Origin: a virus
Lineage: Duplodnaviria > Caudoviricetes
IMG/VR virus record: IMGVR_UViG_3300030372_002234
Location: 8,876-72,875 of that record
Strand: one strand, 5' to 3'
Length of the DNA: 64,000 nt
Positions 3,001 through 64,000 of this stretch are shown in pieces (position 1 is the first letter of the stretch; each line of letters starts with the position of its first letter). Made by a program: the position numbers and the translations under genes. The notes beneath the pieces were generated by a model, which was not told the origin of the DNA, did no database searches, and worked only from the letters and a program-made list of their open reading frames with translations.

Positions 3001-6000
3001 TGTTGATACAACTATTACTAGAAAAGATTTAATTTCTATTTTAGAAACTGCTGAAGAGGGTTATGGGTTTATTGCAAACATCGATGAAATTGCTATTGGA
3101 GCAAGAGTAGGCGAAGGTTACGACGGTGAGAAAGTAATTCAGGCTCTTCTTACTAAACTCAAGTCCACTGATCAAACGTTAGGAAACGTACTTAGTGCTG
3201 GTTTTGAAAAGAACTTAGGTATTCATTTCGGTAAGAAGCTTCCCTACGCTACTGATGTATTTGGATCTAGAGGCGACTTACGAAACCTTATGACTTCTCT
3301 AAAGGGTCAGTTAGAAGGAAAGCAAGCTTATGCTAGAGGTAAAGCAGGAGCAGGAGAATACGCTGGTAATCGAGGAGATGGGAACATTGACGAGGCTACT
3401 TGGAATTCATCCTTTAACGAAGAGTTTATTACTCGTTTAGGTTACATTGCTACAGAAGGTAGTCAAAGAGCTAGAAATCTTCTTGCTGCTTTAGATGGAT
3501 TAAGTCCTGAAAAACAAATTGCTACAGCACTGAAATTTATTAACGAGTTTATTCCTGAAGGACAAAACAAACTAAAATCATTTAGTCAGTTAGGCGGAGG
3601 AACAGAAGCAATTGATTGGGTCGGACCAAAGAGAGCAGCACAAGCTGTCTTGTCGGCTCTGTCTACTGAACGACCGTATGCAAATAAGGTTGCTGAGTCT
3701 TACGTTGTCAAGGGAGAAAGAAACAGACCAGAACGCGCTAGAAGATTAAGTAATATCGATGAAGACGGTATCTATATTCAGCACGATTCTGATCCTATCA
3801 TCCAAAGAAACTACGAACGTGCTACGGCTGATCACGCAATGAACTGGCTTCTTAAGAAATTAGATAATCCTGATTTAGATGCAGAAGCTAGAAAAGATAT
3901 TTATAAAAAACTTCAGGCATGGCTCGAAAATTTCCCTGAACAAGCAGTACTTAATGATGCTGTAAGAGCGGCCCTTCCACAGCAAGGTCTTTCGTTTGTT
4001 CCTCGTTGGATGGTAACTGGTCCTGATGCTGATATCATCGGTAAAAACTTTGGTACAGGTATTGAAGGACAAATACAGTATAACTTAGCAATGTCAAAGG
4101 TTAATACTCCTGCTCTAATGGCTACTATTCACGACGCTATTTTTGTTGGTTTGCCGTCTATGATGACTAAATCAGGAGACGTTGCAGCTTCACCTAGTTG
4201 GAACTTTAAGGTAGGAGACGATCATGTCTTAAGAGGTATTGGATTTGGTTTCCAAACTTTAATTGCTCGTAAAGGTTCTTTTGAAGATGCCTTAAACCAT
4301 GTTCATCAGATTATGTATGGATACAAAGGTTTAGTGGAAGAAGCAAGAGCGTCTTATAACACAATGTCACAAAAAAGAGTAGAAGGTTTAACTGGAAAAA
4401 CTTTTGATACTAACGATGAGTTTGTGGGTTGGATGGCCCAAGAGTTTCCTAAATTAGATACCGCAAAAAAAGAAGCCATTATTAAAGAACTTTTCCCAGC
4501 ATTAGCAAGTTCTTATATGGACGCTGATTCTTCAGGATCAAACATTATGCTTGCTCTTGTGATGGGGCAAGATACTGATTTTGGTAACTTATGGAAAACT
4601 ATTAAAGAAGCTGATGAAGGTAATAAGGATGTCTATAACGAAGCGCACAGTGAAGCTGTTATTAACGCTTACAAGCATGTAGAAAGCTATGTACTGGAGC
4701 GAATCGAAAAAAGAGATTTTAACGGAAAAGCCGGTTTAGAAGAAGTTTATAACGATCTTGGTAAAGTTTTTACAGTACTTAAAGACGAAGGCTTATCTAA
4801 AGAAATCCTTAAAAGCCCAGTTATGACTGACTCTTACGGAATCGGTGTAGCAAAAATGAAAGAAAGCATTATTGAATCTTTCGGTAAACCTTCTGTTAAA
4901 GAAGAATTAATTAAAAGAGGTTTATTTACTGAAGAAGACTACGATGCTAAAATTTACCAGTTATCTGATACTTTAGCTACTTTGTTATCTAAAGGTGTTG
5001 ACTCTAAGTTAGGCGGTTGGATTAAACAAAGCTTATTCGCTAAAGGTGGTTTAGACAACAAAAAATTAGGGGAGATTTTAAATAACTGGAGAAGAACTGA
5101 AAGCGGACAAAGAGTTAGAACAGGAGACGAGCAAAGGTCTGTCGCAGATAGTAATAACTTTATGAGCGATATGACAAGCGGCAGTACTACGGCTAACTTT
5201 AAAGCTGGTAACTCTGAAGAAATTTCTATGTTTGATAACATGTTTGACGAGGTTACACGGCAAATTTCAGTGTTAGCTGAGATTACTGGTGATGTTGAAT
5301 CAGCTAAAGCTCACGTAAACAACTTAGTTAATTTAATTACTGATGACCTTAAAGGTGATAAAAACGTTGAAAAATTAATGGCTGAAGGTAAGTTTGCTGA
5401 AGCTCAGAGAGAAATTGACATTGCTTTTAATAAAATGTCAGAAGAAAGTGTTATGGTTAAAGCACTGAACAGCTACATGGCTCAGGGTTATGGGTTTGAT
5501 GAAACAGCCTTTAGAGGACAGCTTGAAGCTATCTTAGGTAAAGGCAAAGCAGATACAATAAATCAAATCTTAGGTCGTTTAAATCCTCTTGCTAGACAGG
5601 CTATGAAGGGCCAGATGTTTAGGCAGTTAGCTATTTCGGCTGAAACTCGAAACTTTGTTAAAAACAACTTTGATCAAATCGCTGATAAAATTCTTCGACT
5701 GCAAGCAGAAGAATCTCCTCTTGGTCTTGGTAAGCTTGTTATGGAACCGTTGAGCGAAGAAGACATTAGACAGCGTACTATTCTACAGGCCGTTAAAGAA
5801 CTATCAGAAATTTACGACTTAGAAAAATTAGAATTAGAAGTTGGTGGCGAAAGATTTAAAAATCTTACTTGGGAAGATTACTTTAAGCAGTGGGAAAAAG
5901 ATAGCGGAACTGGTTTAGAAATTAGAGCAGCAGCTATAGATGCGTTTAAAAATGTTCGTTGGAAAGCAATGTTAGATGAAATCGATCAGCGTCTTGCTGA

Positions 6001-12889: not shown

Positions 12890-12987
12890 ATTAAAAACCC
12901 AGTGTATTGTAACTAAAGGTTACTCACTACATATTTTATTTGTTATTTTATAATTAGGGATCACTATAGATAACCGGGGGGATAACT

Positions 12988-13768: not shown

Positions 13769-13853
13769 GGGGTCAGGAATTTACAGAGGGGTAAATATGA
13801 ACAACTGTGTTCAGTTTCCCCCCTTACCCCCCGATTCTGAAAGGAATCAAACA

Positions 13854-14441
13854 ATGTCGTATTCATTTGACTGCTTCTGTACTGCGTTCTCTATGCTTGT
13901 TCATGCTATTGCTGGTAATAAATCTACCCTTGACGCAAAAGCCGACAAAGAAAAGGCTGCAAAGCTTGCTCTTGAATTCTTTAAGCAAATGGGACTTGAT
14001 GTTATTACCCCGCTTAATCGAATTCGCGGTGCGGTCAAGCACGAGTTGCTTGGCGGCACGGCTGATTACCTTGTAATCCACTTCCCTACACAGTGGATTT
14101 GCATTAAGGGTTATGTCTATAGGGTGACTACCATCTGTGAGGTCCATCAGTATAGGATCGAGAAAGCTCAGGACGCAAGAGACTGGGCTTTCGAGGTTGA
14201 GAAGCCTTGGCGATTCCAGACTATTGTTTGGGATGGCGAGACCGGCGAACAAGTTGGCTATGAATTTGAAAGTGACTGCTACGAAGATGTCACTGATATG
14301 CAGATGATTACCCAAGCCACCAGTGATTTTGTCGAAGCCGAAGTGCAAGAAATTGTAAAGCAAGTCACTGATGAGGTCGTTGAAGAAGTATGTGATGACC
14401 TTCGTCGCGCCGGTATTCTTGACGATGACCGGATGAACTAA
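13854..14441 (+). CDS. Hypothetical early protein
   Basis: In-frame ATG at 13854 after AAAGGA SD; acidic C-terminus; no recognisable family. Confidence 0.7.
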   Translation: MSYSFDCFCTAFSMLVHAIAGNKSTLDAKADKEKAAKLALEFFKQMGLDVITPLNRIRGAVKHELLGGTADYLVIHFPTQWICIKGYVYRVTTICEVHQYRIEKAQDARDWAFEVEKPWRFQTIVWDGETGEQVGYEFESDCYEDVTDMQMITQATSDFVEAEVQEIVKQVTDEVVEEVCDDLRRAGILDDDRMN

Positions 14442-14519
14442 ACTCGACTGAGCGAGTATAAACAGCCATTAGGCTCAGTGCGTCGGGCTGTACCCATAAC
14501 TGGGTACGGCTCGGGTTGG
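14442..14519 (+). ncRNA. Pistol self-cleaving ribozyme (copy 1)
   Basis: P1 ACTCG/CGAGT; loop ACTGAG pseudoknots with CTCAGT; conserved ATAAACAG, TTAGG and GCG; P2 CCA/TGG; 14-bp P3; G-T cleavage dinucleotide at 14515-14516. Confidence 0.9.
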
Positions 14520-14525
14520 ATTTTG

Positions 14526-14537
14526 TTTCCACTATCA
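14526..14537 (+). promoter_or_regulatory. TTTCCACTATCA box (copy 1 of 4; candidate phage RNAP promoter or leader element)
   Basis: Same box at 14871-14882 and 15875-15886, and TTCCACTATCA at 16527-16537; 33-35 nt before an ATG in three cases. Confidence 0.55.
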
Positions 14538-14560
14538 CTCGATTCTGAAAGGAATCAACT

Positions 14561-14821
14561 ATGATTGGTCACTACGATGCCGTTCGCGTTATTATCCGTG
14601 CTCTGTTGCATAAGGAGGACAGGCCGTCTGATGTGCTCCTAGAGATCCTCAATATGGCTATGACACGCCTTGCTGAAGAGCGTGAAGTGGTCTGCGAGGA
14701 AGGCCCAATTTGGGCACCCGATGGCATGGACAGACGCTTGTCTGAAATCGAAGACAAGACATACGCGCTTCTTGACTGCATCGAAAAGCTTAAGCAGCCG
14801 TACGTTAACAGGGATTTCTGA
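14561..14821 (+). CDS. Hypothetical early protein
   Basis: 86-aa ORF with AAAGGA SD and the shared early leader module. Confidence 0.7.
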   Translation: MIGHYDAVRVIIRALLHKEDRPSDVLLEILNMAMTRLAEEREVVCEEGPIWAPDGMDRRLSEIEDKTYALLDCIEKLKQPYVNRDF

Positions 14822-14828
14822 TCACCCA

Positions 14829-14873
14829 CAAGCGTGTCCTCTACCGGGGATGACGGCTTGTTTTGTTTTGTTT
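14829..14873 (+). terminator. Hairpin followed by a T-rich tract (terminator- or processing-site-like)
   Basis: CAAGC..TCCTC-TACC-GGGGA..GCTTG followed by TTTTGTTTTGTTT. Confidence 0.45.
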
Positions 14874-14904
14874 CCACTATCACCCGTTCTCGAAAGGAGA
14901 ACAC

Positions 14905-15138
14905 ATGGCTTTGTACAGCAAAAAAGAATTGGACAAGTTCAGAGAAATCGCTCGATTCTTCAAGGGATTCGATACTAGCATTCGATCTGGCTCATCGTCA
15001 GAGGCTATCGATGTTGTTATCGGAATGGTCAACCGTGACCGTCCTGTTGTCGAGTCTCTCATTAACCCACGCAATTCATTTGAAATGCAGAGTGACAGTT
15101 GCCCTGAGACGGGCATTGTCTACGGCGATCTTTCCTAA
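14905..15138 (+). CDS. Hypothetical early protein
   Basis: ATG at 14905 after AAGGAG; MALYSKKELDKFREIARFF... Confidence 0.7.
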   Translation: MALYSKKELDKFREIARFFKGFDTSIRSGSSSEAIDVVIGMVNRDRPVVESLINPRNSFEMQSDSCPETGIVYGDLS

Positions 15139-15163
15139 CCTCGCTCTTGAAAGGAGCAACAAC

Positions 15164-15640
15164 ATGGGTGTTTCATTCATGCTCTACCGTACTGACACCG
15201 AAGGCAAGCACCAGCCTGTCGAAGGAGAACGCTTCGAGATCCACTGGTCCTACTCCAGTTGGGCCTACTTCAGGGATGGTGTCCTCAACGCCCTGAAGGA
15301 TGCATACGTTGTGGCCACCAAGGTCCGCAACGATGCTCGTCGGTCGTGGGAGAACGAAGAGAACAAGTCGGACAAGTTCTGGCTTGACAGCTTCGAGGAT
15401 GCTGCGGCTAACGTCCAGCGTCTTGCTGACCTCAAGACCTACTGGGTTGACGGCGACAACCCTGACGAGCAGGTCGATGCGGTCTGGTCCTTCGACAAGG
15501 CCAAGGTGATCGAGTGTCTCTTTGAGGCTCTGGTCATCGACTCTGAGAAGTCGGTGCATCCGTTCGTCGAACGGGACCGTCTCGCGTGGGTGCTGCGTTA
15601 CCTCACGGTGAACGATGGCGATCACCTTGTGGTTGCCTGA
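15164..15640 (+). CDS. Hypothetical early protein
   Basis: ATG at 15164 after AAGGAG; GC-rich codon use. Confidence 0.75.
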   Translation: MGVSFMLYRTDTEGKHQPVEGERFEIHWSYSSWAYFRDGVLNALKDAYVVATKVRNDARRSWENEENKSDKFWLDSFEDAAANVQRLADLKTYWVDGDNPDEQVDAVWSFDKAKVIECLFEALVIDSEKSVHPFVERDRLAWVLRYLTVNDGDHLVVA

Positions 15641-15646
15641 ACCCAC

Positions 15647-15725
15647 ACTCGTCTGAGCGAGTATAAATAGACGTTAGGCTCAGAGCGGCAGGCCGCACCC
15701 TTCACTGGGTGTTGGTCTGCGTCGT
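15647..15725 (+). ncRNA. Pistol self-cleaving ribozyme (copy 2)
   Basis: P1 ACTCG/CGAGT; TCTGAG/CTCAGA pseudoknot; ATAAATAG, TTAGG, GCG; P2 ACG/CGT; long P3; G-T at 15721-15722; compensatory changes relative to copy 1. Confidence 0.9.
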
Positions 15726-15907
15726 GAAAGGAGATCAAGGATGGTCTCAGCTAAGGAAGGCACTTTCCCTTATTGGATGTTTAACCCAGACGGCCCTTGC
15801 GGGGGCCAGCCCCTCACGGGGCAGTCTGGGGTACGTGACCCTTCGATCCTTGCGGGTAGTTTCCCCGCAGGGAGTTTCCACTATCATGCTCTCGAAAGGA
15901 GCAACCC

Positions 15908-16426
15908 ATGTCTTATTCTGCATCGTTCATGTTCGATCACTGTCGCCTCATCTACAACGTTCAGGGTGAGGACGGCTATCTGTTCAACATCAACACCGTG
16001 ACTGGCAAGCTGGCTGAGTTCTGCTGGCTGAAGCCCTCCACGGTGGAGTTCGAGGTGAACAACATCAGTGATGATACCGTCGAACTCCAGCGGACCAAGC
16101 CGAGAGCCGTGAAGCTCAAGGTCCAGCCTCTCCGCAAGCTGGAGTACTTCTTCAACTGGTGTACCAACGAGCCGCTGCCCTGCGCTGCCCGTGCCATCCA
16201 CACGCTGCGGAGCAAGAAGGACAGCATTCGCTTCGTTACTGCTGGCCCTGTCGGCGTTCCGGGTGGTCTTCAGGTCTGCTTCCGTCAGTCTCCCGGTCCT
16301 GTGACCGAGTGGCAGCCCTTCACGGCTGGCTACGGTGGCGAGTGGCTCCCAATGAAGCTGGAGCACATGTCTCGCACGTTCAACCTGTGGCAGGACCGCA
16401 TCCTGAAGGAAGCCTTGGCTGACTAA
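15908..16426 (+). CDS. Hypothetical early protein
   Basis: 172-aa ORF with AAGGAG SD and the early leader module. Confidence 0.75.
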   Translation: MSYSASFMFDHCRLIYNVQGEDGYLFNINTVTGKLAEFCWLKPSTVEFEVNNISDDTVELQRTKPRAVKLKVQPLRKLEYFFNWCTNEPLPCAARAIHTLRSKKDSIRFVTAGPVGVPGGLQVCFRQSPGPVTEWQPFTAGYGGEWLPMKLEHMSRTFNLWQDRILKEALAD

Positions 16427-16444: not shown

Positions 16445-16508
16445 CGAAGACCGAAGAGCCACGACCGAAGGCCCGAAGTCACTCAAACCGAAGACCGAAG
16501 GCCCGAAG
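16445..16508 (+). repeat. Short direct-repeat array (C)CGAAG x7
   Basis: CGAAG at 16445, 16452, 16466, 16474, 16489, 16496 and 16504; GACCGAAGGCCCGAAG twice (16463-16478, 16493-16508); lies in a ~320-bp non-coding gap. Confidence 0.8.
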
Positions 16509-16748
16509 ACCCGTCCTTGCGGGTAGTTCCACTATCACCGGACTCGCATAGAGGCATTCCCCGCGTGTAGTCCCCGCCAGAAGCCGTAGAATCCCGACTG
16601 CGGTCCTCGCGTGGACTCGATGAGTTCCTCCCCGTTTACTTTTACTGTCCGTTAGGCGGCCTCTCCGGCCCTCTCACGGCATTTCCGGGTTCACCTGTTC
16701 GTATGGTGGCCCCTGCTTATTTCTCTCCGTTTCTCGAAAGGAAACAAC

Positions 16749-22160: not shown

Positions 22161-22233
22161 GCCCTCATAGCTCAGTTGGTAGAGCATTCGGCTTTTAACC
22201 GATCGGTCGCAGGTTCGAGTCCTGCTGAGGGTA
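22161..22233 (+). tRNA. tRNA-Lys(UUU)
   Basis: Acceptor GCCCTCA/TGAGGGT; D-arm GCTC/GAGC; anticodon loop CTTTTAA; T-loop TTCGAGT; CCA not encoded. Confidence 0.95.
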
Positions 22234-22248
22234 TTAAGGAGATTTATT

Positions 22249-22344
22249 ATGATTGTTATTACTAACCCTGATTGTCCCGTTTGTAAGGGTACTGGAACAG
22301 ATACCCGTGGACCCATTGCCGAGGAGTGCCCTAAGTGTGAATAA
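22249..22344 (+). CDS. 31-aa Zn-ribbon-like peptide (CxxC...CxxC)
   Basis: AAGGAG SD; MIVITNPDCPVCKGTGTDTRGPIAEECPKCE. Confidence 0.5.
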   Translation: MIVITNPDCPVCKGTGTDTRGPIAEECPKCE

Positions 22345-22348
22345 ATTA

Positions 22349-22867
22349 ATGGATGAAATGTATACGTTTCATAATGAAATTGCTTTAAGAGAAAATGCTT
22401 CGGCTGCTTCGGTAGCCTCGCTGGCAGCAGTCGGGAAGGATTACTTTACGTCCATAGCGGGAGGACTTCTCACCCTCGGTGAAATCCACGCTCCACTATC
22501 ACAGACCCATAAGTTTATCAGCCGTTGCTCCGAGCTTAACTATGAAAACGAAATCAAAACTCACTTGCTTAATCACTACAAGATCCCCGGATGGGGTTCA
22601 TCTTTTGTCAAGGGTAATCCAGACTCGGTGTTCTTTGCAGTTGACTGTATGCTTGAAGGAAGTAAAACACAAGAAAGTCAAAAGAGGGTAACTGAATTTC
22701 TACACGAAAAAGGATTAATGTTATATCCAAACGCTTCCTACTATACTGTAGCATGTTGCATTGAATCGGGAATCCCTATCGAAAAAGCAGCGTTCCATCT
22801 TGTTAATGCTAGGCTCCCTGCTTGGACAGAATTGTGGATGTTGACTAAAGAAAAGAAACTTCGGTAG
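22349..22867 (+). CDS. Citrate synthase / citryl-CoA lyase-like protein with a degenerate active site
   Basis: ENASAASVASLAAVGKDYFTSIAGGLLTLGEIHAP, KIPGWGSSFVKGNPD and LYPNASYYT parallel the citrate synthase NAST..GPLHGGA, IPGFGHRVYK..DPR and PNVDFY blocks. Confidence 0.7.
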   Translation: MDEMYTFHNEIALRENASAASVASLAAVGKDYFTSIAGGLLTLGEIHAPLSQTHKFISRCSELNYENEIKTHLLNHYKIPGWGSSFVKGNPDSVFFAVDCMLEGSKTQESQKRVTEFLHEKGLMLYPNASYYTVACCIESGIPIEKAAFHLVNARLPAWTELWMLTKEKKLR

Positions 22868-22931
22868 CTCAGTTGGATAGAGCAGTTGACTTCTAATCAA
22901 CAGGTCGAAGGTTCGAGTCCTTCCCGAAGTG
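22858..22931 (+). tRNA. tRNA-Arg(UCU)
   Basis: Acceptor ACTTCGG/CCGAAGT; anticodon stem GTTGA/TCAAC with loop CTTCTAA; T-arm GAAGG-TTCGAGT-CCTTC. Confidence 0.95.
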
Positions 22932-22935
22932 TAAT

Positions 22936-23020
22936 GGCTCTGTGGCGGAATTGGCAGACGCAACGGACTTAAAATCCGTCGAGGGTAAACCTCATGGGGG
23001 TTCGAGTCCCCCCGGAGCTA
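22936..23020 (+). tRNA. tRNA-Leu(UAA)
   Basis: Acceptor GGCTCTG/CGGAGCT; anticodon stem ACGGA/TCCGT with loop CTTAAAA; long variable arm; T-arm GGGGG-TTCGAGT-CCCCC. Confidence 0.95.
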
Positions 23021-23036
23021 TTAGAAAGGAGTATTT

Positions 23037-23231
23037 ATGTACGGTAAAGGCGATAAATACAGAGACGTTGATAAGAAAAAGTACGATGAACAGTATGAAA
23101 AGATTTTTGGAAAGAAAAAATTTAACATCATGAGTGACAAGGAGTCCAATGACAGTATGGGAAACGTACACAAAAGAAGAAAAGACAAGGCTAACAAATC
23201 TTCAGTTAGCAAACGAAGACAAAGCCGCTAA
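23037..23231 (+). CDS. Small basic hypothetical protein
   Basis: AAGGAG SD; GKGDKYRDVDKKKYDEQYEKIFGK motif typical of small phage ORFs; overlaps the RNAP start. Confidence 0.55.
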   Translation: MYGKGDKYRDVDKKKYDEQYEKIFGKKKFNIMSDKESNDSMGNVHKRRKDKANKSSVSKRRQSR

Positions 23232-25713
23232 ACAGTCTATTGCAAAGTATCTTAACAATGTTAACATGTCCCCTAGTGCTTCTCCAAGAGAAAAGGAATT
23301 TGTATTTGACTATACAGAATACCTTAGTGATTACATTAAGTGGACAGAAGAGCAGTACGAAAAAGTAAAGAAGAAGCCTTATTGGCTTACTATTGCTCAT
23401 TTGTTAGGTGCTGAACGTTGTGCTGCTATTGTTGTTAAAGCTTTACTTGATAGTTGCTTATCGTCTCGTTTGATACAAGCATCAGACGGCATTAAATACG
23501 ATAACTATAACTTAGGAGACTTAAGATCCCAGACTAAACAAAATATACTTGGAGTTATATCAAGAGAACTGTGGCTTGCTATTGGCATACGCTTGGCTAA
23601 AGAAAACTACGGCGAAGAGTTTGCCCGACAGTCTCATTACTTCAAGAACTGGAACAAAAAGAGAATGAAAGCGTTTGCACGTAAGTGTCAAACGTTGCCT
23701 ACATGGGATAACCAAAAAAGAAATGTGGTTGCCTTATCGTTTTATACTTTAATGGTAGGAAACAAAGAAAGCGTTATGCCCTTTGTTGAGAATCCTATTA
23801 CTATTGTAAAGAACGGTCAGATTAAAAGACATACTATTATCTCCTTGCGAGAAGAGTTTACGAAAAACTTTGAGGCATTTCATAATTTCTACCAATACTA
23901 TAAGTGGTTGTATTACCCGATGGTGTGCCCACCTATTCCTCACAACTATCCTAACAGGACAGCAGAGGACTGGGGTGGTGCTTTACATCTAGAGTACAGG
24001 AAGTCATCTGTTCATAACACAAGAGCAGGTAATTACTACAAGAACAATAGTGAGCATAGCCAGCAGTCAATCAATGCGCTTAATGCATTGCAAGGTACTG
24101 AATGGAGCATCAACAAAAGAGTTCTTGAAGTAATGACAAACCTGTACAAGTCTAATCGACAGGTGTGTAACCTACCTCCTTATGAGCACGATGAGTTTGT
24201 GTTTAGCAAACCTTTCCCTGAAGGGGAAGAAAAAGAAGTAATAGCTAAATGGAAAAACGAACGGGCGGAAGCTTGGGGTCTATGGGAAAAGACTAAGCAA
24301 AAGAGAATGCAAATGGAAATGCGTTTGCTTATTGCTGATGATCTTAAAGACCTGACGTTTTGGCACGGCTATTCTTCTGACTTCAGAGGCAGATGCTATA
24401 CGCAGTCATCGTTTCTATCTCCTCAGAGTGGTGACTTTGACTGCGGCATAATCCAGTTTGCTGAAGGTGCTAAACTAGAAGCAAATGAAGTTAAAGAAAA
24501 ATGTGATTACTTTTGGTTAAAGGTTCACTTAGCTAATAGGTGGGACTTTGATAAAGCTTCTTTTGAAGAACGTGCTCAATGGGTAGATGATAATATTGAT
24601 ATGCTTCGTCAAGTGTACGAAGACCCTGAAGGTACTGTAGACCTCTGGAAAGATGACAAAGCTAAAAAGAATGTGTCATTCAGACGGCTGGCTGATACTA
24701 TTGATTTCTTTGTTGCTTTAGAAACAGGTTACTCGTATGTTCCTAAGAATCTCGATGGAACATGCAACGGTATTCAACATTGGGTTGGTACGACAAAAGC
24801 TGAAAACTTAGCTGAACTTGTCAATGTTATTAAAACTCTTAAACCGGGTGACATGTATAAGTTTATTGCTCATAACGCTACTGCAAAAATGGAAGCAGAG
24901 CGTGATGCCAATCAATACTTTGATATGTTTTTAACCCATTGGGAGCATACAGAAAAAGACAAGAAGATGCCAAGGGGGCTACCTAAAAGAACTGTAATGT
25001 GCGACCCCTACGGGGTTACGTTCTACAGCGCAAGGCAGTACATTCGATCTGAAGGACATCTTGACTGGTGCAGACCATTGCTCGAAGAGCGTGGCCTAAG
25101 CTGGCAGGGAGCCATCATGGAATGTACGTCAGTAATTTGGGAAGCACTGCAAGAAGCATTGATCTTACCTAATGAAGCTAAAGAATACATTAAAGATTGT
25201 GTTGAAGTTTGTTACAACAGTGATGACCGGAAGAAAAAGCCACTCCAATGGACAACTCCTTCTGGATTTAAAGTCAGGCAATATTATACAGAACATATAG
25301 AATATATTACTGATATTGCTTTACTGCTAAAGAATGATGTACGCATCAGATCTACGGCAGAAATGTGGCAGTTTACTGACAACATGGACGTTAGGAAAAT
25401 GGCTACTGCTATTCCTCCTAATTGGGTTCATTCAATTGATGCTGCTCATATGGTATTTGTGGTACTCGCTTTGCTAGTTATGGGTTGCAGAAACTTCTGT
25501 ATGATCCATGACAGCTTCGGCGTACCCGTCACTTACCTAAAGTATTTACCACGTATATCAAGGGAAACATTTTATGAAATTCACAAAGAAAGCCAACTCG
25601 AACTATTTAAACAAGACCTCGAAAACTTTTCCGGTCACGAACTCCCAGACATTCCTGAACAAGGTGGCCTCATTCCAGAAGAAATTCTCGAATCTGAATA
25701 TCTCTTCTGCTGA
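23149..25713 (+). CDS. T7-like single-subunit DNA-directed RNA polymerase
   Basis: DFRGRCY, motif A DGTCNGIQH, motif B RGLPKRTVMCDPYG, PPNWVHSIDAA and motif C MIHDSF in canonical order; ATG at 23149 after AAGGAG. Confidence 0.97.
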   Translation: MTVWETYTKEEKTRLTNLQLANEDKAAKQSIAKYLNNVNMSPSASPREKEFVFDYTEYLSDYIKWTEEQYEKVKKKPYWLTIAHLLGAERCAAIVVKALLDSCLSSRLIQASDGIKYDNYNLGDLRSQTKQNILGVISRELWLAIGIRLAKENYGEEFARQSHYFKNWNKKRMKAFARKCQTLPTWDNQKRNVVALSFYTLMVGNKESVMPFVENPITIVKNGQIKRHTIISLREEFTKNFEAFHNFYQYYKWLYYPMVCPPIPHNYPNRTAEDWGGALHLEYRKSSVHNTRAGNYYKNNSEHSQQSINALNALQGTEWSINKRVLEVMTNLYKSNRQVCNLPPYEHDEFVFSKPFPEGEEKEVIAKWKNERAEAWGLWEKTKQKRMQMEMRLLIADDLKDLTFWHGYSSDFRGRCYTQSSFLSPQSGDFDCGIIQFAEGAKLEANEVKEKCDYFWLKVHLANRWDFDKASFEERAQWVDDNIDMLRQVYEDPEGTVDLWKDDKAKKNVSFRRLADTIDFFVALETGYSYVPKNLDGTCNGIQHWVGTTKAENLAELVNVIKTLKPGDMYKFIAHNATAKMEAERDANQYFDMFLTHWEHTEKDKKMPRGLPKRTVMCDPYGVTFYSARQYIRSEGHLDWCRPLLEERGLSWQGAIMECTSVIWEALQEALILPNEAKEYIKDCVEVCYNSDDRKKKPLQWTTPSGFKVRQYYTEHIEYITDIALLLKNDVRIRSTAEMWQFTDNMDVRKMATAIPPNWVHSIDAAHMVFVVLALLVMGCRNFCMIHDSFGVPVTYLKYLPRISRETFYEIHKESQLELFKQDLENFSGHELPDIPEQGGLIPEEILESEYLFC

Positions 25714-34154: not shown

Positions 34155-36044
34155 ATGAATTTTTTTGGTGATTTCATCCATCAGTCTCGCTACGCAAAGT
34201 GGCGTAATGACCTCTCAAGACGAGAAACTTGGACCGAAACAGTTGATCGATACTGGAATTGGATGTGTGGTAAATTCCCCATCCTTAAAACTAGAGAGGA
34301 CATTAGAGAGGCAATTCTAAAAAAGAATATTATGCCTAGTATGAGAGCAATGATGACCGCTGGTCCCGCTGCTGATAGGGATAATACCTGTACTTATAAC
34401 TGTTCTTATATTGCACTAGATAGCCCTAAGGCAATGCAAGAACTTTGTTATATTCTGATGAATGGCACCGGAGTAGGATTTTCTGTTGAAGAAAGTGTAA
34501 TCGATCAGTGGCCTATGGTCCCTGAGTCTATTGAAAGAATTGATGAAGTTATCGAAGTAGAGGACTCCAAAGAAGGATGGTCTATTGCTGTATATGAACT
34601 TATGATGCACCTGTACGAGGGGTGCCACCCTACGTGGGATGTCTCTAAGGTGCGGCCATCTGGGGCTAGGCTCAAGACATTTGGAGGACGAGCTTCTGGA
34701 CCCGGACCTCTTGAAGATGTGTTTAGATTTATTACTAACATGTTCTATAACAAAAGAGGCAAGAAGCTTAAGCCTGTAGATGTTCACGACATTGCTTGCT
34801 CTATTGGTAATGCTATTGTTGTTGGAGGAGTGCGTAGGTCTGCTATGATCTCACTGTCGGATTTGACCGATTACGACATGGCTAAGTGTAAGTCAGGTAA
34901 CTGGTGGGAGCAGGAGAGCCAGCGTTCTCTTGCTAACAACTCTGCTATTTATAATTCTAAGCCTTCAATGTCTGAGTTTCTTCAGGAGTGGGCACACCTG
35001 TACGAGTCACGTTCGGGTGAGCGTGGTATCTTTAATCGATACGGAACTCAAAAGTGTATGGAAAACACTCAAAGAGATAACAATTACAAGTTTGGTACTA
35101 ACCCGTGCGGGGAGATTACTCTCCGAAGCAAGCAGTTCTGTAACCTTACAGAAGTAGTTATTAGATCAGAAGATTGTAGCATTGATATTGAAGAAAAGAT
35201 TGAACAGGCTACTATCCTTGGCACACTCCAGTCATCCCTTACGCATTTCCCTTTCTTGTCCGAAGAATGGAAAAAGAATAGCGAAGAAGAAAGATTGCTT
35301 GGAGTTTCACTAACTGGTATTTGGGACAACCCAATTACTTATGGAAAGATTTCTATGGGACAGCTTAGGGGGCGACTTAAAAGATGGAGAGAGTTGACCC
35401 ACGAGATTAACGCTGACTGGGCGCACCGGATCGGTATTAATCCAAGTGCTGCAATTACAACGGTCAAACCCTCAGGAACCGTGTCCTGCCTTGTGGACTC
35501 TGCTTCAGGGATTCATCCGCGTTACGCGCAGCAGTACATTAGAAGAGTTAGAATGGATATCAAAGACCCCCTAAGCACCCTCATGCTTGACCAAGGTGTC
35601 CCGCACGAACGCTGCATGAACAACCCGGACTCCACTATCATCTTCGAGTTCCCGCTTGCTGCTCCGGCCAATGCCATGACTCGCAACGAAGTCTCAGCTA
35701 TGAGACACCTTGAGTTGTGGATGACGTACAAAAAGTATTGGACTGATCACAACCCATCAGTCACAATCGAATATACAGATGATGAATACATGGAGATTGG
35801 TGATTGGGTTTATCGTAACTTCGATGACATCCAAGGAATTTCTTTCCTACCAAAAACAGAACATGTTTACAAGCAAGCTCCTTTTGAGCCAATTGATAAT
35901 GTTGCCTATCTAGTAAGATGCGATAAAATGCCCATGATTAAATGGTCAAAGCTTTCTGAATACGAGCTTGAAGATACTACCAAAGCAAGTCAAACACTTG
36001 CCTGTACAGGCGGTGCTTGCGAACTTGTAGACTTAACCGATTAG
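34155..36044 (+). CDS. nrdJ: Class II (adenosylcobalamin-dependent) ribonucleotide reductase
   Basis: PSMRAMM, YNCSY, GTGVGF, VVGGVRRSA, TNPCGEI, TTVKPSGT, C-terminal ACTGGAC; no small subunit in the window. Confidence 0.92.
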   Translation: MNFFGDFIHQSRYAKWRNDLSRRETWTETVDRYWNWMCGKFPILKTREDIREAILKKNIMPSMRAMMTAGPAADRDNTCTYNCSYIALDSPKAMQELCYILMNGTGVGFSVEESVIDQWPMVPESIERIDEVIEVEDSKEGWSIAVYELMMHLYEGCHPTWDVSKVRPSGARLKTFGGRASGPGPLEDVFRFITNMFYNKRGKKLKPVDVHDIACSIGNAIVVGGVRRSAMISLSDLTDYDMAKCKSGNWWEQESQRSLANNSAIYNSKPSMSEFLQEWAHLYESRSGERGIFNRYGTQKCMENTQRDNNYKFGTNPCGEITLRSKQFCNLTEVVIRSEDCSIDIEEKIEQATILGTLQSSLTHFPFLSEEWKKNSEEERLLGVSLTGIWDNPITYGKISMGQLRGRLKRWRELTHEINADWAHRIGINPSAAITTVKPSGTVSCLVDSASGIHPRYAQQYIRRVRMDIKDPLSTLMLDQGVPHERCMNNPDSTIIFEFPLAAPANAMTRNEVSAMRHLELWMTYKKYWTDHNPSVTIEYTDDEYMEIGDWVYRNFDDIQGISFLPKTEHVYKQAPFEPIDNVAYLVRCDKMPMIKWSKLSEYELEDTTKASQTLACTGGACELVDLTD

Positions 36045-62630: not shown

Positions 62631-62874
62631 AGGAGCCATGAAAGGTTGTAATATCGGTAATGGCTGTAAAAGCAAAAAGGGTGGTCTTACTGCAAAAGGC
62701 CGTCGAATGATTAACCGTAAAACTGGCTCTAAGCTTAAAGCCCCTCAGCCCGGTGGTGGTTCTCGTAAGAAAAGTTACTGCGCTCGGTCTGCCGGTCAAA
62801 TGAAAAAGTTCCCTAAAGCTGCTAAAGATCCTAACAGCCGTTTACGAAAAGCAAGGCGAAGGTGGAAATGTTAA
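62611..62874 (+). CDS. DUF6321-like basic protein
   Basis: KGGLTAKGRR..TGSKLKAP..RKKSYCARS.GQ..AAKDPNSRLRKARRRWKC. Confidence 0.7.
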   Translation: MAKRKSKGAMKGCNIGNGCKSKKGGLTAKGRRMINRKTGSKLKAPQPGGGSRKKSYCARSAGQMKKFPKAAKDPNSRLRKARRRWKC

Positions 62875-64000
62875 ATGAATATACCCCAAGAAATGACTGA
62901 AGATTTTAGGAACCACTTGTGGGCCTGCTTTAAGTATCTAGGTTTGGGGGAGCCTACGCCATTACAATACGCTATGGCCGAGAAATTACAAAACGGCCCT
63001 GATGGCTTTCAGCTTCAGGCTGGCCGTGGTGCTGGTAAATCTGTGTTAACGGCTTGCTTTGCATCATGGTTGCTTCTTAAAGATCCTAATACAACTGTAA
63101 TGGTTATGTCAGCTACGGCCAATAAGTCTACTGAGTTTATTTCTATGACTCGTCGTATTTTGTCCCTTGTCCCGTATTGTCAACATATGGAACCCGGTCC
63201 TAATACCAAAGATAATGCCTTTGGGTTTAACGTAGAGAACAGAACTACACACGGTCAGGATATGAGTTGCTTTGCTCGTGGTGTCACGGGGCAGATAACG
63301 GGGTCACACGCTGATTGGGTAATTCTAGATGATGTAGAGATTGAAAAGAACTCAGAGACAGCAGAGAGCCGTGAGCGGCTTCTCACAAAGGTCTGGGAGA
63401 TTGAACAGATTCGTAATCCCGGAGAAGGTGGTGTACGCATTCTGGGTACGCCTCAGACCTCTGAGTCTATCTACCGTAAGATGGCTGACGGCTATCCAAT
63501 CCACAAGTTCCCTGCACTGATGCCTGATCCTATGGCTGAAGGTCAGATTGAGAACTGTGCTGATTATATCCTTGAATTAGATCTACAGCCCGGAGAGTCT
63601 ACCCAACCTGAGAGATTCCCGTTAGATCTTTTAATCGAACGTAAAGCAAAAGTTGGGCCTAAGTTGTTTTCTTTGCATTACCATCTTGATACAACTCTAG
63701 CGGATGCTGAAAGGTATCCCCTTAAGTTAGCTGATTTAGTGGTATTAGATCTTGACTACGAAGTAGCCCCTGAAAAAGTCGTGTGGGCTTCAAAACAAAT
63801 TAATAAGTCTATGCCCTCCTTTGGGTTAAGTGGAGATGTGATTTATGAGCCTATGTGGATTTCCCAAAATTATGAGCCTTATGTCCAAAAAGTCATGCAC
63901 ATTGACCCTAGTGGAAGAGGTGCTGACGAAACAGCCATATGCTGTAGTGGCTATCTTAATGGTTATGTTTTTATTATGGAGTTGCTTGGCTACGATGGCG
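62875..64000 (+). CDS. terL: Terminase large subunit (T7 gp19-like), 3'-truncated by the window
   Basis: Not in the ORF track; read directly from the sequence: PTPLQY, Walker A QAGRGAGKS, GQITGSHADWVILDDVE, LGTPQ, nuclease motif IDPSGRGADET. Confidence 0.95.
   Translation, partial: MNIPQEMTEDFRNHLWACFKYLGLGEPTPLQYAMAEKLQNGPDGFQLQAGRGAGKSVLTACFASWLLLKDPNTTVMVMSATANKSTEFISMTRRILSLVPYCQHMEPGPNTKDNAFGFNVENRTTHGQDMSCFARGVTGQITGSHADWVILDDVEIEKNSETAESRERLLTKVWEIEQIRNPGEGGVRILGTPQTSESIYRKMADGYPIHKFPALMPDPMAEGQIENCADYILELDLQPGESTQPERFPLDLLIERKAKVGPKLFSLHYHLDTTLADAERYPLKLADLVVLDLDYEVAPEKVVWASKQINKSMPSFGLSGDVIYEPMWISQNYEPYVQKVMHIDPSGRGADETAICCSGYLNGYVFIMELLGYDG

Follow-up and report, generated by a model that had tools for sequence, protein, structure and literature searches.

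Processing of mRNA by host RNase III is the textbook solution in T7-like phages, and the phage described here is of that type. Does such a phage also make RNA that cuts itself between its genes, and if so, what would the cut do for the messages on either side? The question was raised by a sequence-only reading of a 64,000-nt stretch of viral DNA (64 kb; the window), which had placed a pistol ribozyme directly after a stop codon between early genes and had proposed that the phage processes its early polycistronic RNA by itself. Pistols are a class of self-cleaving ribozyme, reportedly described in Weinberg 2015.

The window is taken from a 72,875-base IMG/VR virus record, rated complete by CheckV, of which it covers bases 8876-72875; near-identical DNA is present in marine metagenome runs. 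All called genes and large ORFs lie on the + strand, among them the gene for an 859-aa single-subunit RNA polymerase at 23134-25713 (PF00940, 6.5e-64); the record also encodes a T7-type primase-helicase, a family A DNA polymerase (PolA), and ribonucleotide reductase. Identity between the phage RNA polymerase and its counterparts in cultured phages is no higher than about 25%, indicating a distant T7-like lineage. Roughly 10 kb of small ORFs and three tRNA genes extend from the end of a 4719-aa ORF (12889) to the polymerase gene, and none of these small ORFs gave a Pfam or PHROGs match. By its position upstream of the polymerase gene, and by comparison with T7, this small-gene region is the putative early region. 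The G+C content is 48-58% at 14-17 kb, compared with about 40% elsewhere.

The tRNA genes (Lys-UUU, Arg-UCU, and Leu-UAA; 22161-23021) immediately precede the polymerase gene and are conserved in relatives; all three tRNAs read A/U-ending codons, consistent with an AT-rich genome. The 4719-aa protein returned nothing in Pfam, PHROGs, or a PDB sequence search, and its ORF has a sub-cut-off match to PF00940 at window positions 4646-4921 (17.9 bits, E 2.8e-5 for the genome), so that a domain of the N4-type virion RNA polymerase is possible. A 67-nt exact direct repeat is present at genome positions 1-67 and 71715-71781 (window 62840-62906), not at the very end of the record; it includes the starts of two ORFs (genome 36-1730 and window 62875 onward) and is either a pair of paralogous gene starts or an assembly feature.

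The sequence-only reading had called for an Infernal search with the Rfam Pistol model, RF02679, whose gathering score is 34.5 bits. When both strands of the 64-kb window were searched with 4227 Rfam families, this model matched the proposed ribozyme (copy 1) at 65.4 bits with an E value of 1.2e-9 and aligned over its full length. Each of the elements that had been listed directly 3' of the stop codon is found at its place and in the order given. P1 (ACUCG/CGAGU, 14442-14446 with 14453-14457) forms five of five pairs and the 6-bp pseudoknot (ACUGAG 14447-14452 with CUCAGU 14474-14479) six of six. The linker AUAAACA occupies 14458-14464, P2 pairs CCA at 14466-14468 with UGG at 14517-14519, and the core consists of UUAGG (14469-14473) and GCG (14480-14482). 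P3 is a 14-bp hairpin at 14483-14514 that was also found by free-energy folding (z -4.1). In the model alignment the junction between P3 and P2 is 2 nt, with the predicted cut at G14515|U14516, the same bond that the sequence-only reading had picked. The stop codon TAA lies at 14439-14441 and the ribozyme begins at the next base, A14442, with a gap of 0 nt. The extent proposed earlier, 14442-14519, is right at its start and one base short at its end, a trivial difference, since the model runs to 14520. The distance from the predicted cut to the next AUG, at 14561, is 45 nt, just as had been estimated.

A second pistol (copy 2) matched RF02679 at 49.2 bits (E 6.2e-6 for the 64-kb window), again above the gathering score. 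Its Infernal alignment stops at 15697 and the long P3 is skipped; the full layout of copy 2, including the cut site, is taken from sequence reading, a pair table, and folding, which go beyond that alignment. P1 at 15647-15662 forms five of five pairs and the pseudoknot (15652-15657 with 15679-15684) six of six, while P2 is formed by ACG/CGU (15671-15673 with 15723-15725). P3, at 15688-15720, has 13 bp and one bulged U and was also recovered by folding. The predicted cut is at G15721|U15722, within a 2-nt junction. Copy 2 begins 6 nt after a stop codon, and its predicted cut lies 19 nt before the AUG at 15741. A search of the whole 72.9-kb record gave identical scores for both pistols (65.4 and 49.2 bits), and neither this search nor a permissive Rfam scan found a third pistol or a ribozyme of any other class.

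Features around the two pistol ribozymes of the window (positions are those of the window)
Feature	Position	Strand	Basis or remark
Gene upstream of pistol copy 1	13797-14441	+	Longest ORF 214 aa; gene callers give 186-195 aa
Pistol ribozyme copy 1	14442-14520	+	RF02679 match, pair table, folding
18-nt repeat TTTTGTTTCCACTATCAC holding the intergenic motif	14521-14538, identical copy 14866-14883	+	Sequence
Small hairpin GAUUCU-GAAA-GGAAUC with the Shine-Dalgarno of the next gene	14541-14556	+	Folding
Gene downstream of pistol copy 1, 86 aa, no known family	14561-14821	+	Part of the 345-bp cassette
77-aa gene	14905-15138	+	Matches a 77-aa gene call on L032
158-aa gene directly upstream of pistol copy 2	15164-15640	+	162-aa homologue called on L032
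Pistol ribozyme copy 2	15647-15725	+	RF02679 match, sequence reading, pair table, folding
Shine-Dalgarno AAAGGAG (15727-15733) and AUG (15741) of the next ORF	15727-15743	+	Sequence

The catalytic nucleotides are intact in both copies. In the env25 pistol, catalytic roles are documented for G33, which binds Mg2+ at N7, for G40, the general base, and for G42 (PMC7027511). Using a numbering match (env25 minus 1) that was inferred from the Rfam consensus, the equivalents are G14473, G14480, and G14482 in copy 1 and G15678, G15685, and G15687 in copy 2. The 2-nt GU junction is likewise that of the class, in which exactly 2 nt, usually GU, separate P3 from P2 and contain the scissile bond (PMC4604425). 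P2 is just 3 bp in both copies, shorter than the P2 of the biochemically studied constructs, and the fourth pair of the model is a purine-purine mismatch, G.A or G.G.

Related genomes reveal how these structures change. The relative G004 (loci L012 and L025, with a fuller version in L032) has both pistols at the same places, scoring 63.3 and 45.4 bits. When the four copies, two from the window and two from G004, were set in register, the catalytic core was invariant among them. Two of the three P2 pairs, seven of the 14 P3 pairs, and the pseudoknot pair 6-38 (A-U in copy 1 and U-A in copy 2) had changed on both sides with pairing kept. A fifth copy, on a short ENA contig (L034; 65.5 bits), adds one further compensatory P3 pair, and the protein encoded upstream of it is 77% identical. 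Compensatory changes in P2, P3, and the pseudoknot around a constant core in five related copies indicate that the fold is under selection, and together with the covariance-model score and the intact catalytic nucleotides they bear out the identification of the element as a pistol. A contig from a seawater metagenome was used solely to show that the ribozyme is better conserved than its flank: its 80-nt ribozyme is at least 85% identical and the 551 nt upstream are not, although these 551 letters upstream of pistol 1 may belong to a diverged orthologue instead of a different gene.

Three + strand genes (14561-14821, 14905-15138, and 15164-15640) lie between the two pistols, which are 1.2 kb apart. 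Annotation of the second and third genes is complicated by a 268-aa ORF with a GTG start at 14834-15640, which is very likely a mis-call that joins the 15164-15640 gene to a spurious extension. Because each of the two smaller frames has its own Shine-Dalgarno in a small hairpin and both are called as genes on L032, 14834-15640 is better read as two genes, the first of which is preceded by a hairpin and U-run, a second copy of the intergenic motif described below, and a Shine-Dalgarno hairpin. The product of 14561-14821 matched nothing in Pfam or PHROGs. Likewise, the product of 13797-14441 had no Pfam or PHROGs match and only 4 homologues among 5.8 billion proteins; wherever the contig of such a homologue was examined (G004/L012, L032, and L034), its gene is directly followed by a pistol.

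Several smaller features of this region were observed. In G004 (L012 4641-4660) the upstream ORF enters the pistol by 20 nt and ends at the UAA of the AUAAA linker, and a ribosome terminating there would sit on P1. Small hairpins with GAAA-type loops and the Shine-Dalgarno in the 3' arm recur at 14541-14556, 14886-14901, about 15145-15160, and about 15887-15902; the stem sequences of successive genes differ and the pairing is kept. The short ORF that follows pistol 2 is separated from the next motif copy by a strongly structured GC-rich stretch at 15785-15875 (fold z -3.6, with no shuffled sequence equally stable, and no Rfam match). The gap after the gene at 15908-16426 holds an array of about nine CGAAGAC(C)-like units (16445-16513), directly before another hairpin and motif copy. 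Among assembled contigs, the only one from an RNA library that matched the region spans 14905-15148, away from both cut sites.

From these features we conclude, with moderate confidence, that both pistols are probably active and cleave the + strand transcripts between neighbouring genes of the region ahead of the RNA polymerase gene. What the sequences show directly is the fold, catalytic nucleotides that are intact, selection on pairing, and placement between co-oriented genes; from them we infer transcription across the two sites, cleavage in vivo, and the consequences for expression. Each ribozyme would fold during RNA synthesis, forming P1, the pseudoknot, P3, and the short P2, and would then break its own strand between G and U (14515/14516 in copy 1, 15721/15722 in copy 2). 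This would leave the upstream message with a 3' terminus that consists of the compact ribozyme fold and bears a 2',3'-cyclic phosphate; the 3-bp P2 would come apart, freeing the downstream message with a 5'-hydroxyl and a short leader, of 45 nt or 19 nt, that carries the ribosome-binding site. Neighbouring cistrons would be uncoupled, with stability and translation independent of each other and of read-through. No host nuclease would be required, and the outcome would be the same whichever polymerase had made the RNA. Pistol cleavage proceeds at >10 per minute at physiological Mg2+ and pH (PMC4604425). Self-processing of the early polycistronic RNA in the manner of T7 and RNase III, as the sequence-only reading had suggested, is plausible and agrees with the long-standing proposal for clusters of phage ribozymes (PMC3088659, PMC6765202).

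The two copies differ in what follows the cut, and the difference involves a short intergenic motif. The motif TTCCACTATCA occurs exactly at 14527, 14872, 15876, and 16527, and with C as the first letter at 22491 and 35630, the two forms together being T/CTCCACTATCA. TCCACTATCA has 6 copies on the + strand of the record, four of them within 14.5-16.6 kb, and 0 on the - strand; this far exceeds chance, by which any one 10-mer should turn up about 0.07 times in 73 kb. Between three and six copies of the motif are present in the early regions of all relatives examined. The usual order is a hairpin with a U-run, the motif, a Shine-Dalgarno hairpin, and the AUG; at 14527 the place of the hairpin is taken by P3 of copy 1. 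The motif has CACTAT in common with promoter cores of the T7/SP6/K11 type, and the phage encodes a polymerase of this kind. By this likeness, it is a reasonable guess that TTCCACTATCA is a promoter for a phage-type polymerase. A sigma-70 reading was rejected, as no -35 element is found at a workable spacing and the sites of a promoter scan were not above those in shuffled sequence. A single close look-alike of a K11/SP6-type promoter, AATTAGGGATCACTATAGATAAC, is seen at 12951-12973, in the AT-rich gap between the stop of the giant ORF (12889) and the first small gene.

Downstream of copy 2 there is no motif between the predicted cut and the next AUG, just 19 nt with the Shine-Dalgarno, and the downstream gene must therefore be translated from RNA that passes through the ribozyme. 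This arrangement fits well with the self-processing model of the sequence-only reading. Between the cut of copy 1 and its next gene lies a motif copy (14527-14537), so that this gene may have a transcript of its own and the ribozyme may serve mainly to create the 3' terminus of the preceding message. For copy 1, a role as a substitute for a terminator, or as an insulator, is about as likely as intercistronic processing.

Extended to both copies, such a role is possible but on the doubtful side. Each cassette would have its own TTCCACTATCA promoter, and the ribozyme would provide a defined, structured 3' end and stop read-through, doing the job of a hairpin with a U-run for any polymerase; the downstream gene would not be expressed from processed RNA. 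The restriction of the motif to the + strand and its recurrence in the early regions of relatives favor this reading, as does a hairpin with a U-run (14828-14861 and 14862-14871) that precedes the motif exactly as P3 of copy 1 does (14483-14526). The missing motif downstream of copy 2 argues against it, as does the standing of the motif as a putative promoter, some copies of which, such as that at 35630, fall within coding regions. A terminator-like score was obtained for P3 of copy 1 together with its tail, and we considered whether this P3 is a true intrinsic terminator. The U-run lies 6 nt past the stem and is part of the repeated motif, copy 2 has no U-run, and we rejected this candidate as weak.

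A further point for the insulator role comes from relatives that have no pistol. G001 is complete and its polymerase is 96% identical to that of the window; G002 is 99% complete and its polymerase is 70% identical. No pistol was found anywhere in either genome with RF02679 up to E 0.1. The gene downstream of pistol 2 also exists in G002, where its leader and start are conserved and homology picks up at 15726, the first base beyond P2. In place of copy 2, G002 has a plain GC-rich hairpin before that gene, some 12 nt past the preceding stop codon, indicating that a ribozyme and a simple hairpin fill the same slot within one lineage. The absence of pistols from both genomes means that the role of the ribozyme is dispensable or replaceable and that ribozyme processing is not fixed in the early expression of this phage group.

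These observations can be combined into a more specific scheme, which we offer tentatively. The pistols would be interchangeable modules at the ends of cassettes, like a terminator made of a hairpin and U-run, and would give polymerase-independent 3' ends and insulation. Transcription of each small early gene would start at a CACTAT-type promoter, for which the polymerase may be a virion-borne RNA polymerase domain of the 4719-aa protein. If this scheme is true, comparison of the window's own genome (G000) and G004 with G001 and G002 is a ready-made test of what ribozymes are for in phages. If cleavage is true, the exchange of a pistol for a hairpin could show what a ribozyme offers over a terminator or a host nuclease.

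The small genes do behave as cassettes in one documented case. Direct repeats of TTTTGTTTCCACTATCAC flank a 345-bp cassette with a single gene (ORF 14561-14821). This cassette is missing in G004, in L032, and in a seawater metagenome contig, where the join shares the 18 letters of both sides, and it looks like a segment gained or lost by recombination between motif copies.

The pistols themselves may be passengers, spread with cassettes or serving as sites of exchange with little benefit for expression. We regard this as unlikely. Their presence among close relatives is patchy, the homology blocks of relatives start or stop at the ribozyme edges, and the 33-nt core with a CUGAGC/GCUCAG pseudoknot occurs in very different contexts, in 17 other IMG/VR contigs and 113 metagenome stretches (marine, soil, and gut). 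Against it, the compensatory changes in P2 and P3 and the invariant core point to selection on an active fold and not just on a stretch of DNA, and the documented gain or loss of a cassette used the 18-nt motif repeat, not a ribozyme. Contigs that diverge from the window at 15646/15647 and at 15687 were considered as mosaic breakpoints; they are explained more simply by a widespread pistol subfamily that shares a 41-nt core.

This subfamily is found well beyond the present lineage, to which 2 of the 70 unique metagenome copies of the core belong. Several viral loci have two or three pistols 0.4-0.75 kb apart (L023 and L031 have three each), and for 16 of the 22 pistols of viral contigs the end of a co-oriented ORF falls within a span that runs from 8 nt ahead of the ribozyme start to 20 nt inside the ribozyme. 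The conserved core itself contains stop codons, UGA in the P1 loop and UAA in AUAAA, so any frame that enters the core is soon closed. Most of the GenBank phages with the core infect Bacillus and are large (about 160 kb), and Gordonia phage GMA2 and Cellulosimicrobium phages have it too; the core matched no T7-like phage in GenBank, and a 6-kb region of the window had no match among GenBank phages. A link between pistols and T7-type polymerases was also tried and rejected: PF00940 was found in none of the 15 other core-bearing viral contigs, many of which are fragments, with the genome of the window as the positive control.

It is very unlikely that the cut serves to lower expression, exposing the downstream RNA to decay and limiting the next gene, possibly under regulation. 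The glmS ribozyme, whose 5'-OH product is degraded, is the one well-understood bacterial precedent (PMC6765202), and upstream translation, which reaches the first base of P1 here and extends into P1 in G004, could modulate folding. No ligand-binding or switch element is seen next to the pistols, and pistols are fast and constitutive in vitro (PMC4604425). That the two elements are inactive look-alikes or chance matches, as the short P2 and the failure of Infernal to align P3 of copy 2 might suggest, is hardly credible given E values of 1.2e-9 and 6.2e-6, the presence of all defining features, covariation, and syntenic copies in diverged relatives.

Cleavage between cistrons by both pistols is thus the reading that we carry into a comparison with known systems. 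Processing of the T7 early transcript by RNase III was reportedly described by Dunn and Studier. T7 and, by prediction, the phage of the window have cuts between cistrons ahead of the RNA polymerase gene and in its vicinity, which leave the upstream message with a structured 3' end. In T7, however, a host protein enzyme cuts long double-stranded hairpins and leaves 5'-phosphate ends, whereas here the RNA would cut itself and leave a 5'-OH and a cyclic phosphate. Close relatives of the window phage manage without the ribozyme. A related principle is used in synthetic insulators of the RiboJ type, in which a self-cleaving ribozyme before the ribosome-binding site yields a fixed short leader independent of upstream sequence; these are engineered, not natural, and belong to a different ribozyme class.

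Compared with natural ribozymes, both copies have the P1, 6-bp pseudoknot, A-rich linker, P2, P3, 2-nt G|U junction, and core nucleotides of the pistol class (RF02679; PMC4604425, PMC7027511), and they differ from it in a P2 of only 3 bp and a long P3 (32-33 nt). The arrangement resembles that of the hammerhead clusters found in prophages in 2011, which border one gene or a short block of genes, are active both in vitro and in E. coli, and were proposed to cut long phage transcripts into mRNAs of single-gene or operon length (PMC3088659). In both cases, small phage genes of diverse identity are separated by ribozymes in the same orientation as the genes (PMC3088659), and the window has the arrangement set out in Perreault 2011, at least two ribozymes of a self-cleaving class on the gene strand that flank a short block of genes. 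The ribozyme class is different, only two copies are present here, and cleavage is predicted from sequence here. The HHphage hammerhead of haloviruses HF1 and HF2 likewise lies a few nt before an early start codon, 13 nt compared with 19 and 45 here (PMC3088659). Those are archaeal viruses with a hammerhead whose cut site coincides with a mapped transcript 5' end (PMC3088659), whereas the cut sites of the window are predicted from sequence.

Pistols near phage genes (2015) and phage genes flanked by ribozymes (2011) are already known, and this locus brings no new RNA class or arrangement. The roles of nearly all bacterial and phage self-cleaving ribozymes were described as largely elusive in a 2019 review (PMC6765202). 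Unlike the cultured phages in GenBank that match the core, this carrier is T7-like, comes from marine samples, and encodes a fast single-subunit RNA polymerase of its own. The value of the locus lies in this carrier and in a natural comparison between a pistol and a plain hairpin before the same downstream gene and leader.
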